Shown here: in pieces, positions 11,754-52,761 of the stretch | How positions within the stretch are numbered: the stretch's first letter is position 1 | How the letters are laid out: each line of letters starts with the position of its first letter | NCBI GenBank assembly: GCA_964016885.1 | Contig: OZ024755.1 | Location: 38,130,001 to 38,194,000, forward strand | DNA: 64,000 nucleotides | From: Eledone cirrhosa | Taxonomy: Eukaryota | Reading direction: 5' to 3' | Made by a program: the position numbers and the translations under genes | The notes under the pieces: generated by a model | Databases searched by the model: none | Told to the model about the DNA's origin: nothing | Seen by the model: the letters and a program-made list of their open reading frames with translations, nothing else

Positions 11754-11764
11754 AATATATATAT

Positions 11765-11960
11765 AACGAAGGAATTGTGGTAAGGAACCAGATGGACCAT
11801 AACGCACCAAAGTACTCAATACTTAGGGTAGTAGAGTGGATAATAGGAACAAGTATGACCCCCAACGGCAGAGCTCAAGCCGTTTCGACGGCTATTTCTG
11901 GAGTCCAGAAATAGCTGTCGAAATGGCTTGAACTCTGCCGTCGGGGTCATATTGTTCCTA
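11765..11960 (-). mobile_element. (TA)n-embedded hairpin-plus-tail element (family H1)
   Basis: Palindrome 11844-11960 plus a unique tail of about 80 bp; homologous to 41405-41598 (opposite orientation) and 21551-21681; TA repeats on both sides. Confidence 0.8.
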
Positions 11961-21296: not shown

Positions 21297-21550
21297 ATAT
21301 ACATATATATATATATATATACACGCACACATACATATACACACACACATATATATATATACATACATACACATATATATATATATACATACACATATAT
21401 ATATATATACACGCACACACACACACATATATACATACATACACACATATATATACATACATACACACATACACATATGTATGCATACATACACACATAT
21501 ATATGTATATACATATACATACATGCATATATATATATATATATATATAT

Positions 21551-21681
21551 AACGAAGCAGGTGTGGTAAGGAACCAGAAGGACCATAACGCAGCAGAGTA
21601 CTCAATACTTAGGGTAGTAGTACAGTCCAGAAATAGCCGTCGAAACAGCTTGAGCTCTGCCATCGGGTTAAACATTTTCCT
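21551..21681 (-). mobile_element. Internally deleted family H1 element
   Basis: Same tail (AACGAAG...GTACTCAATACTTAGGGTAG) joined to only one hairpin arm; lies in (TA)n. Confidence 0.8.
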
Positions 21682-21705
21682 ATATATATATATGTATATA
21701 TATGT

Positions 21706-40197: not shown

Positions 40198-40401
40198 CAT
40201 ATCATCATTTTACGTCCGCTTTTCCCTGTTTGCAAGGGTGGGAGATATATATATATATATATGTATATATATGTAATCTGAGTTTTTCGAATATTAATAA
40301 TAATATTCGATTCGTTTACAATTATGCAAACAACCCTCTTTTTTTAAAGCCATGTCATATGTACATACATATATACATACATATATATATCTATATATAT
40401 A

Positions 40402-40440
<39 letters not shown>

Positions 40441-40444
<4 letters not shown>

Positions 40445-40640
40445 TTAATATAGATGAGATTCTACAGGACTAGAACTGTTTCATTCTTTAGAAATCATCA
40501 GGATTTCCTGATGATTTCTAAAGAATGAAACAGTTCTAGTCCTGTAGAATCTCATCTATATTAAAACTTTTATACTCTGCAATGTATTGAGTACCTTACT
40601 TACTGTGGTTACCTCCGATTCAACCCGGAATAACGTACGT
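40441..40640 (+). mobile_element. (TA)n-embedded perfect-palindrome-plus-tail element (family H2)
   Basis: Perfect 63-bp arms at 40441-40503 and 40506-40568, followed by a tail of about 70 bp containing GTATTGAGTAC; (TA)n on both sides. Confidence 0.8.
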
Positions 40641-40656
40641 ATATATATATATATAT

Positions 40657-40845
40657 AATTGTTTCTACTTTTGGCACAAGGCCAGCAAATACCCAGTGCA
40701 TTACTGGTACTTTATTTTATCGACCCCGCAAGGATGAAAGGCAAAGTTAATCTCGGCGGGATTTTAACTCAGAATGGAAAGGGCCATAACTCTGTGTCAA
40801 AGCATGGTGTCCGACCCTCTACCAATACTGCCAATCCACCACCCT
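40657..40845 (-). mobile_element. SINE-B
   Basis: Reverse complement of the family consensus. Confidence 0.9.
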
Positions 40846-41092
40846 TATATTTATATTTATATATATATATATAATATAAGTCGCATGAATACAACAATTT
40901 CACAGTTAAAGGACATTGTTATATTAATGTCACTTATATTATATATAAACACTCCTTGAATTACCTCCATTATACCCACGGTTCATCACCATGGAAACAC
41001 TTGATAAGTGATTCACTTGTTGAGTTAAAAACCACTCCATGTTTGTTGACACAGTCTTCGATTTCCCCTAATGAAATCTGATTACTACTGTA

Positions 41093-41404
<312 letters not shown>

Positions 41405-41598
41405 TAGGAACGAGTAGGACCCCGACGGCTGAGCTCAAGCCATTTCGACGGTTAATTCTGGACTCAGAATTAGCCGTCGAAACGGCTTGATCTCTACCGT
41501 CGGGGTCCTACTCGTTCCTATTACCCACTCTACTACCCTAAGTATTGAGTACTTTGGTGCGTTATGGTCCATCTGGTTCTGTACCACATTTCCTTCAT
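41405..41598 (+). mobile_element. Family H1 hairpin-plus-tail element
   Basis: Palindrome 41405-41520 (loop GACT); tail with GTATTGAGTAC at 41542; (TA)n flanks. Confidence 0.8.
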
Positions 41599-42327
41599 TA
41601 TATATATATATATATATATATATATTTCACTATTTTATACTCAACATATGAATTGTGGTAACTTTTCATCACAAAAGCAGATAGTTTATTTACCTAACTG
41701 CTGTTCTGTCTCTGTGCTACATGTTACTTCACACTGACTGCCAAGTATAGGTCAGTACTTAAGCTTTTTAAATCCTGACTGATATGATTGATTTAGTAGG
41801 GTATTTTTATAACAACAGCATATCTTGACTTATTGATTCTAGATAGATCAACAAAATGAAATACATCTACCAGAAACAGAATCTAAACAACTTTCAGTTC
41901 TGCTACTTCAGAGAAAATGTTGTTACATCTAACTGGCTGATCTATCTATACTGATGGGGATGGGGGACACACACATACATAAACACACAGTGTTGTCATT
42001 AGGGTATTGGGCTACTGACTTGGGTGAGAGTGGAGAACTCATATACAGCCTCCTATGTCTTGCTGTGTCTCTGGCCTAGATACTTAGCTATCAAACAGCT
42101 CTGTCTACAATGATGTAGAACAGTGAATCCCAACCTAACAGGGACCCTATTTATGTAAATTAATTTTACGATGTACCCCAGGCTTTTTAAAGGTCTGTAC
42201 ACTGAAATCCTGCTGTGATATGTTTATGTAGTAGACTTAACCTGACATCCAGTAAAGCACCTTGCTCTAGGATGCCCTTAGCAGAGTTACTTTGTTGTAA
42301 GGAGACAGGTCACAAATACCAATTTAA

Positions 42328-51482: not shown

Positions 51483-51900
51483 TGGATTGGCAGGATCAGT
51501 AGATCGTCTCACAGCATGTTTAGTGGCATAGAGTTACGACCCTTTACATTCTTAATTCAAATCCCACCGAGGTTAACTTTGCCTTTCATCCTTACGTGGG
51601 GGGTCTATAAAATAAAGTACCAGTAATGCACTGGGGTTGATTTAATTGACTTCCCCTCCCCCCAAAATTGCTGGCCTTGTGCCTAAAGTAGAAACAATTA
51701 ATTTATATGTAATTGTTTTTACTTTTGGCACAAGGCCAGCAATTAATCCCAGTACATTACTGGTACTTTATGTTATGGACCTCGTAAGGATGAAAGGCAA
51801 AGTTAACCACGGTGGGATTTGAACTCAGACCGTAAAGGGCCATAACTCTATGCTACATAGCATGGTGTCTGACGCTCTACTGATTCTGCCGATCCACCGC
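51483..51900. mobile_element. Two SINE-B copies tail-to-tail (+ 51483-51700; - 51712-51900)
   Basis: Family consensus in both orientations, about 10 bp apart. Confidence 0.9.
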
Positions 51901-52761
51901 TCTTCTAATATAATAAATAATCTAATATATACTATGTATAAATAAATATATATTTTTTATTTTACTATATATATAATATGTATCATTTGATATTTAATAT
52001 ACTATTATATAATCTCTACTGTACCTCTTAGGGCCCCAGCACCCCCTGGACAATCTCATACTTTCCCTTCGGAGCAGTAGCACCCACTTTGAGAACTTCT
52101 GACCTAAAATAACAAAGAACAGTCAAACCTAGTTGTAATTATATATGTCTGGGGCAGCTTTCCAAGATAGCAAAGGGGACGCAATTGTGTTTTGTCATTG
52201 TTATCAATATCATCATTGTTGAACCAACAGGAGAGCCTTTCTATGGTGTTTATTTCAACCTGCTAGAAATAGCAGCTAAATATCTACATACCGAGGTTAA
52301 CTTTGCCTTTCATCCTTACTGGGTAGATAAAATAAAGTACCAGTAATACACTGGGGGTAAATTGCTGGCCTTCTGCCAAAAGTAGAAACAATTATTACAC
52401 AGCTATAGCAACATAATGGAAATAATGAGGCCTCTACTATATGAAGTATATAGCCTCCAGATGAAAGAGAGAGACAAGAACAATCATCATTGTCATTATA
52501 TCTGTTTTCCATGGTAGCAAGGGTTGGATGGGTTGTCATGGTCCCAGACTAGACAGGTTGAGGAATCACATCTTGCCCTTACTGCTCACATCTATGCAAG
52601 TTTATCTGGTCTTCTACAAGTTGGCATCCCACAGAGGTTTCTCAAGTGTTTTAATGATAGGGGCCCCCTGCAGTCTTATCTTACCACAGGCCTTCCCTAT
52701 AGAGAAAAAAGATTCAATATTATCAATCTGATGATATTGAATCTTCTTTCTCTATAGGGAA

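Follow-up and report, generated by a model that had tools for sequence, protein, structure and literature searches.

A hairpin with 63-bp arms (40441-40503 and 40506-40568) lies in the window, the whole stretch of 64,000 nucleotides of Eledone cirrhosa DNA analysed here; its arms match with zero mismatches about a 2-nt loop, as a preliminary description of this DNA had reported, and that description was also right about CTGATGA at 40508-40514, GAAAC at 40527-40531, a tail reaching 40635-40638 and (TA)n flanks. The target is (TA)n on the left (40357..40440) and on the right (40640..40657). Numbering from the A of AGATTCC (+1) in the parent element described below, the left arm (40441..40503, minus strand) is an inverted, tail-less copy of parent leader +5..+67, with 95% identity to parent copy L179, and the right arm (40505..40568, plus strand), which holds the hammerhead, is leader +4..+67. 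At the tip joint (40504..40505), 40505 is parental +4 and 40504 is non-parental; the inferred transcription start, +1, would fall at 40502, the first 3-4 nt being trimmed in this copy. Next comes the ‘tail’ (40569..40638, plus strand; +68..+134/137), lying between two inferred reverse transcriptase (RT) start sites; in full-length copies this segment continues to an ATG at +182. Right arm and tail together (40505-40638) are 96% identical to the parent leader. Within the tail, at 40584..40594 (plus strand, +83), is the 11-mer GTATTGAGTAC, which has a potential 3-bp stem with a 5-nt loop and a putative function as a signal. Directly to the right of the insertion, window positions 40660-40850 hold a very high-copy repeat with a read depth tens of times higher.

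Three stub palindromes of a second family, H1, are also present: two with tails (41404..41604, plus strand, and 11760..11947, minus strand) and one in which an arm is internally shortened (21546..21683, minus strand). The exact 11-mer was confirmed at all four places where it had been reported, namely 40584, 41542, 11812 (minus strand) and 21598 (minus strand). Three further imperfect hairpins lie at 1053-1194, 51666-51744 and 52693-52761; the last, with CTGATGA at its tip, is a possible stub of another family.

Judged on sequence, the window hairpin belongs to an autonomous Penelope-like element (PLE) of the Hydra clade, of which it is a stub insertion, and not to a separate non-autonomous family. 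We found the parent by walking out from loci picked by the tail motif, many of which hold copies that extend upstream without folding back. In one such locus (L133) the order is 3′UTR, pseudo-LTR (pLTR), arm and tail, then an ATG with an intact ORF of 713 amino acids. The preliminary description had invoked PLE-type machinery and proposed looking for the same tail at PLE ORFs; both ideas proved sound, as the window element matches the leader of this intact Hydra-type ORF at 96% identity, and the 11-mer lies 98-99 nt before the ATG in 27 of the 30 closest ORF loci. The hammerhead core is present in 23 of these 30, the remaining loci being cut shorter. The same 758-codon open frame occurs in 18 of 150 scored places, and the family is apparently young, with intact ORFs; a direct test could take from it both the protein and a template of 140 nt.

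The 713-aa ORF carries the RT motifs QLD and YRDD. Its predicted structure, built from 105 homologues (pLDDT 93), has telomerase RTs (TERT) as its top six PDB fold matches (E 5e-9 to 7e-8, TM about 0.33), and the model points to a single-ORF telomerase-like RT, as in PLEs. PDB sequence and profile searches with the protein gave nothing significant, and a Pfam search of the ORF gave no RT match. A weak GIY-YIG match (PF01541, residues 597-623, E 0.005) lies below the curated cut-off; the YxG, R, E and N of this domain are invariant across the 105 homologues, PF01541 is found in 29-50% of members among atlas neighbours of the protein, and the ORF ends in a C-terminal GIY-YIG endonuclease, as in EN+ PLEs. 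The Hydra clade is defined, in the available text of PMC8557442, by RWK, DKT, a CxCX5C linker and CxxC plus CxH. The corresponding motifs here are IRWR (with K at that position in 71% of homologues), SDKT, CNCLNKEAC, CDLC and CPNCMH; by eye, there is no CCHH, in that no cysteine pair lies inside the GIY-YIG core. These motifs, together with a (TA)n insertion preference evident from copy flanks, indicate assignment to the Hydra clade, and domain order and motifs exclude the Naiad, Neptune and Nematis clades. Other PLE features are a pLTR, derived from partial tandems (L133), and inverted 5′-truncated copies with a tail on one side (L091, L093, L126-L132, L138, L139). The 11-mer and arm words were absent from the PMC8557442 supplement text searched, beyond which consensus sequences may lie. 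We regard the element as probably a new family of a known clade, and its insertion as of a known kind.

Several observations were made around these loci. TATTGAGTAC recurs in the parent 3′UTR shortly after the stop codon (L133:7921-7930). Other PLE ORFs lie nearby (L095:1785-4214, L127:4622-6511 and L138:2-2437), two of them Hydra-like (36-41% identity); the third has a CxxxxCxxC linker, which we take to be Neptune-like. PLEs nest within one another's (TA)n.

H1 stems, again on sequence grounds, from a second PLE family of Hydra type, whose geometry is the same: in L223 and L224 the H1 tail leads into the start of a related ORF, and in L208 the sequence upstream holds an endonuclease end. The earlier suggestion of several non-autonomous families was not supported: the window element and H1 are both leaders of ORF-bearing Hydra-type PLEs, with tips that vary per copy. 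The H1 tip falls inside loop II, so that the first catalytic box, UUGA(A/C)AA in the H1 parent, is omitted from H1 stubs; this box matches a U3-A8 hammerhead variant described in PMC4209133. The site at which H1 tips end, TT-A-GTCC or TC-A-GTCC, is initiator-like and lies 31 nt past TATTTATT. The shared motif GTATTGAGTAC, which had been said to occupy the same place in both families, does so, at +83 in the window family and +82 in the H1 parent, with variants in three other contexts. It may act as a cis signal, as had been proposed. GTATYGAGYAC contexts of the motif occur in L032, L137, L263 and L234, one of them 137 nt before another Hydra-type ORF start, and further families likely share this motif.

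The hammerhead motif itself is genuine, as had been proposed. In the parent, a 6-bp helix I (AGATTC/GAATCT), CUGAUGA, a 3-bp helix II with a variable loop, helix III (ACAG/CTGT) and an NUH triplet, with a predicted cut after GUA, make up a predicted type I hammerhead ribozyme. Over 14 distinct unfolded parent copies 97.8% of cells are paired; helix II is invariant, and two helix I pairs change on both sides, a covariation that represents few events, as the 14 copies fall into about three subfamilies. In the window the predicted hammerhead spans 40505..40552 (plus strand), with the layout of the Hydra hammerhead table in PMC8557442 File S2: a remnant of the 5′ strand of helix I (40505-07), the CUGAUGA box (40508-14), helix II (40516-18/40523-25), the GAA box (40527-29), helix III (40530-33/40542-45), the predicted cut site after A40546 and the 3′ strand of helix I (40547-52). 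The preliminary description had called stem I unclear. This is true of the window copy alone, where the joint removed the first 3 nt and 3 of 6 helix I pairs are kept; the parent has the full helix. The cleavage triplet given earlier, GTC, lies in loop III (40539-41), and the predicted triplet is GTA at 40544-46. The Infernal-type scan that had been proposed gave no Rfam hammerhead match at gathering score; the sole hammerhead-type match, RAGATH-1 on the minus strand, reached 22.9 bits (threshold 56.3, E=1).

This ribozyme appears to be a passenger that is copied through. For +1..+51 the predicted hammerhead fold is within 0.3 kcal/mol of the minimum free energy (P=0.03), and in +1..+125 it is negligible; the whole window-copy transcript is predicted to fold into a long hairpin, so that the window copy would lack the ribozyme fold while the 63-bp hairpin forms. 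Nor is the hammerhead supported as the cause of the fold-back: the H1 tip is inside loop II, and in the window family only 1-2 of 80 5′ ends lie at the predicted cut site. Elsewhere, L358 (G000:C28:30588000-30597000, with matches from 30.50 to 30.85 Mb) is a 78-bp tandem satellite whose unit is essentially the window family's hammerhead without the tail, with 113 units matched in 9 kb; its sequence suggests a retrozyme-like or satellite derivative.

A first look at the 3.0-Gb genome gave 643 dispersed candidates. Genome-wide, the tail 14-mer TATGTATTGAGTAC has 14,870 matches, a few of them H1 or chance, against 27 for a reversed control. In all, 4,867 palindromes fold within 25 nt at the same spot, and the unfolded junction has 5,768 matches, a count inflated by a satellite. 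Tips differ between the palindromes, as expected for independent insertions. In raw reads, from runs with the same species label, we saw strand-change joints at the tip and left-to-right-arm joints; these are joints of family copies, which library fold-back may give too, and no read spans the window locus, so that the palindrome was recovered from raw reads for the family and not for this copy. An assembly artefact was rejected in view of the thousands of palindromes with varied tips together with the raw-read joints. A miRNA precursor was rejected, as Rfam hits reflect the hairpin only and are all under gathering scores, and so was a MITE or DNA transposon, as the asymmetric tail, variable centre and retroelement parent do not make a constant TIR structure. 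Thousands of hairpins that annotation would call MITEs or miRNA precursors are thereby reclassified. No excess of A>G editing marks was found among private arm differences (8 A>G of 75).

On the side of the target, the arms end mostly at two sites. Among 265 arm ends, from partly overlapping loci, 107 lie at +60..+72 and 117 at +126..+140, while 23 run on toward the ORF; the span between the two end sites is the tail (67-70 bp). Arm lengths form a continuum up to kilobases, and multi-kb head-to-head inverted pairs share these two ends, only one of their sides bearing the tail. This layout agrees with the inverted copy plus tail already known from PLEs and with a pair of internal RT starts demonstrated in vitro (PMC11167929). 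In L015/L016 and the first copy in L362 the tail is on both arms, i.e. both ends were primed at the +134 site.

The 5′ end, at the tip, is sharp. Of 91 tail-picked matches in 90 loci (two or three rows being misclassed by TA runs), 41 start at -20..+12, 31 of these with an inverted arm and 10 joined to host DNA; a further 18 extend beyond the TATA box, 21 have their start at a more downstream position, and the other 11 belong to another family or are too short. A non-parental base occurs at -1 in 1,554 matches and at -4 in 82; by eye, 54 of the latter come from one satellite and 17 are point variants, which leaves 11 real joints. Position +1 lies 30 nt after a TATA box, TATAAATA, and 84 after CCAAT, and the TATA spacing is kept in divergent subfamilies, including L314/L352. 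Its context fits what we take to be the initiator consensus. We propose that the leader RNA starts at +1 and is capped. D. virilis Penelope has a TATA-less internal promoter (PMC2377424, in the available text), so this promoter layout is not general.

These ends lead us to the reading that we favour, at a probability of roughly 0.7: the stub would have been made by two cDNAs on a capped sense RNA, each running off at its 5′ end, with the tips joined in (TA)n. Transcription from the pseudo-LTR promoter would yield a capped RNA that begins with the first base of helix I of the hammerhead; the RT-endonuclease would bind the leader, possibly at the GTATTGAGTAC stem-loop, and cut both (TA)n strands; one end would prime at about +134, giving the tailed copy, and the other at about +67, giving the tail-less copy. 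Both cDNAs would end at the cap, in many cases with a C added across from it, and end-joining, with trimming or short fill-ins, would unite the tips. Use of the same start sites in the downstream pseudo-LTR of a read-through RNA would give the multi-kb inverted copies. More generally, we see about an even chance that PLE mirror-image ends arise from twin priming on one capped sense RNA, that stubs record the transcription start and two RT starts, and that the GTATTGAGTAC stem-loop at +82/83 is an RT-binding signal common to Hydra families. If this is true, stub palindromes are a record of each family's transcription start and of its two RT start sites.

It is conceivable that the tip is instead set by RNA structure or processing, either through RT stalling at helix I or through a splice acceptor (T-rich CAG before +2). 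In the window family the tip falls at the outer end of helix I, TTTTTTGATACCCAG looks like an acceptor, and in D. virilis Penelope an intron end maps to helix I (PMC4209133, in the available text). However, the H1 tip lies inside loop II; no constant upstream exon was seen, only one G; the L314/L352 subfamily without the AG keeps the TATA spacing; and stalling leaves the non-parental G unexplained. We therefore give this explanation a very slight chance.

The stubs could also belong to a self-propagating non-autonomous hairpin family, with the whole palindrome transcribed and recopied by PLE proteins. Some tips do recur exactly (8 of 30 loci share a deletion tip, and a single H1 tip is found in the majority of 30 loci picked by similarity), and ORF-less pLTR arrays exist that could be sources. 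However, stubs have no TATA box; their tips vary greatly, and the recurring one sits on several variants of loop II, which is what microhomology would give; and the stub is 96% identical to the leader of intact elements, with arm lengths continuous to kilobases. Such a family seems to us improbable. One of these arrays, L357 (G000:C1:83678500-83687500), has eight head-to-tail ORF-less units of about 1.08 kb, each with a 3′UTR end, promoter, hammerhead, tail and (TA)n, and is a possible non-coding source locus.

Returning to run-off on a capped RNA, the base at -1 is informative. Of the first 100 listed matches, all on one contig, 80 have a G there, 12 an A and 8 a T (by eye; the first 30 by script), with C excluded by the design of the pattern; 7 of the non-G rows are parent-type variants. 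The left arm (CATCAG) could supply a G in many inverted copies, so the clean cases are only the copies joined directly to a microsatellite, of which 15 of 17 have G at -1, and those with G on both arms, found in eight palindromes from seven places, with a single intervening base in most. The window copy, being trimmed, shows no G. In 100 H1 matches the base is C in 50, G in 46 and A in 4, and we attribute the frequent C to a TCAGT subfamily and to microhomology. RTs copy the cap as an extra base, and we read the extra G as a cap copied by RT; no paper on a cap-derived extra base was found in the literature searched.

The arms of each palindrome also agree with one another. In a sample of 55 palindromes, 22 of them still perfect, we compared the two arms at polymorphic sites. 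They match in 52-53 of 53-54 copies, where independent arms would be expected to do so in 30-41; both arms thus came from one source at insertion, and the preliminary description was right that the arms are made then, for they share subfamily variants. The perfect symmetry of the window copy probably reflects its youth. Concordance requires that both cDNAs come from one RNA or one source locus; later homogenisation of the arms or snap-back would give it too. In snap-back self-priming, one cDNA, or a copy of antisense RNA, folds back and copies itself, and antisense self-priming has been proposed for PLE head-to-head junctions (PMC3846280, in the available text). It explains arm identity directly, and one locus (L072) is built as a fold-back through helix I would make it. 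However, snap-back leaves terminal bases unduplicated, yet in the eight palindromes each arm includes +1 and the extra G; the end of the tail-less arm is fixed, even where copies are several kilobases long; single-arm copies share the same 5′ end and G; and with an antisense template a sharp end at a sense promoter would go unexplained. The cap signature thus conflicts with the published antisense explanation, and we consider snap-back unlikely. The sharp end at the promoter and the cap-like G on both arms argue that the template was sense RNA and that it was primed twice.

Published work already covers inverted copies, tails, hammerheads and (TA)n targeting, while no description of stub palindromes ending at a transcription start was found in the literature searched, and the text examined of an O. 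vulgaris repeat paper (PMC13282606) contains neither ‘palindrom’ nor ‘hairpin’. With the EN+ Hydra clade, as given in the available text of PMC8557442, the window family shares the RWK-type, DKT, CxCX5C, CxxC and CxH motifs, a single ORF with C-terminal GIY-YIG, the canonical hammerhead layout (ctgatgat...tgaa acag..ctgt a) and the (TA)n target, and one Repbase Hydra member has a 5′-truncated inverted copy. It differs in a hammerhead unlike that of Hydra-1_Obim, the sole cephalopod family listed there, in RWR instead of RWK, in a 3′UTR swollen by microsatellites, so that copies exceed 3 kb, and in a tail of about 67-70 bp against 30-40; stub palindromes with a fixed 5′ end are not described for the clade in that text.

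The metazoan non-LTR retrozymes (bioRxiv 10.64898/2026.07.22.740005, in the available text) are non-coding, bear type I hammerheads and are related to PLE pLTRs. They are head-to-tail arrays with at least two complete hammerheads, whereas the window copy is a single head-to-head stub with a damaged one; a retrozyme was therefore rejected for the window copy, tandem derivatives occurring elsewhere.

As to mechanism, the Poseidon PLE of Anolis provides a close likeness in vitro (PMC11167929, in the available text): it cuts and extends both strands of its target, its tail lies between two internal RT start sites, the target is AT-rich and hammerhead cleavage is dispensable. Its RT starts lie inside the ORF, whereas those of the window family lie in the 5′ leader, and the formation of inverted copies is not a subject of that text. 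Adineta vaga Penelope (PMC3846280) has a head-to-head inverted pLTR, an optional tail, junction palindromes and TATA/Inr-like motifs in the pLTR; antisense self-priming was proposed there, whereas the both-arm extra G seen here points to a capped sense template. The formation of tandem and inverted PLE structures is named an open problem in PMC8557442, and the template strand was left open in PMC3846280. 

The proposed process also has likenesses outside PLEs. Run-off cDNA from an internal start to a capped 5′ end resembles retroviral minus-strand strong-stop DNA, which differs in its tRNA primer and strand transfer, both absent here. The priming of both target ends resembles L1 twin priming, which inverts without duplicating, whereas the stubs carry two copies of one segment. 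What seems to us worth following up is the case that the sequence makes for a capped sense template and for twin priming in a Hydra-clade PLE.
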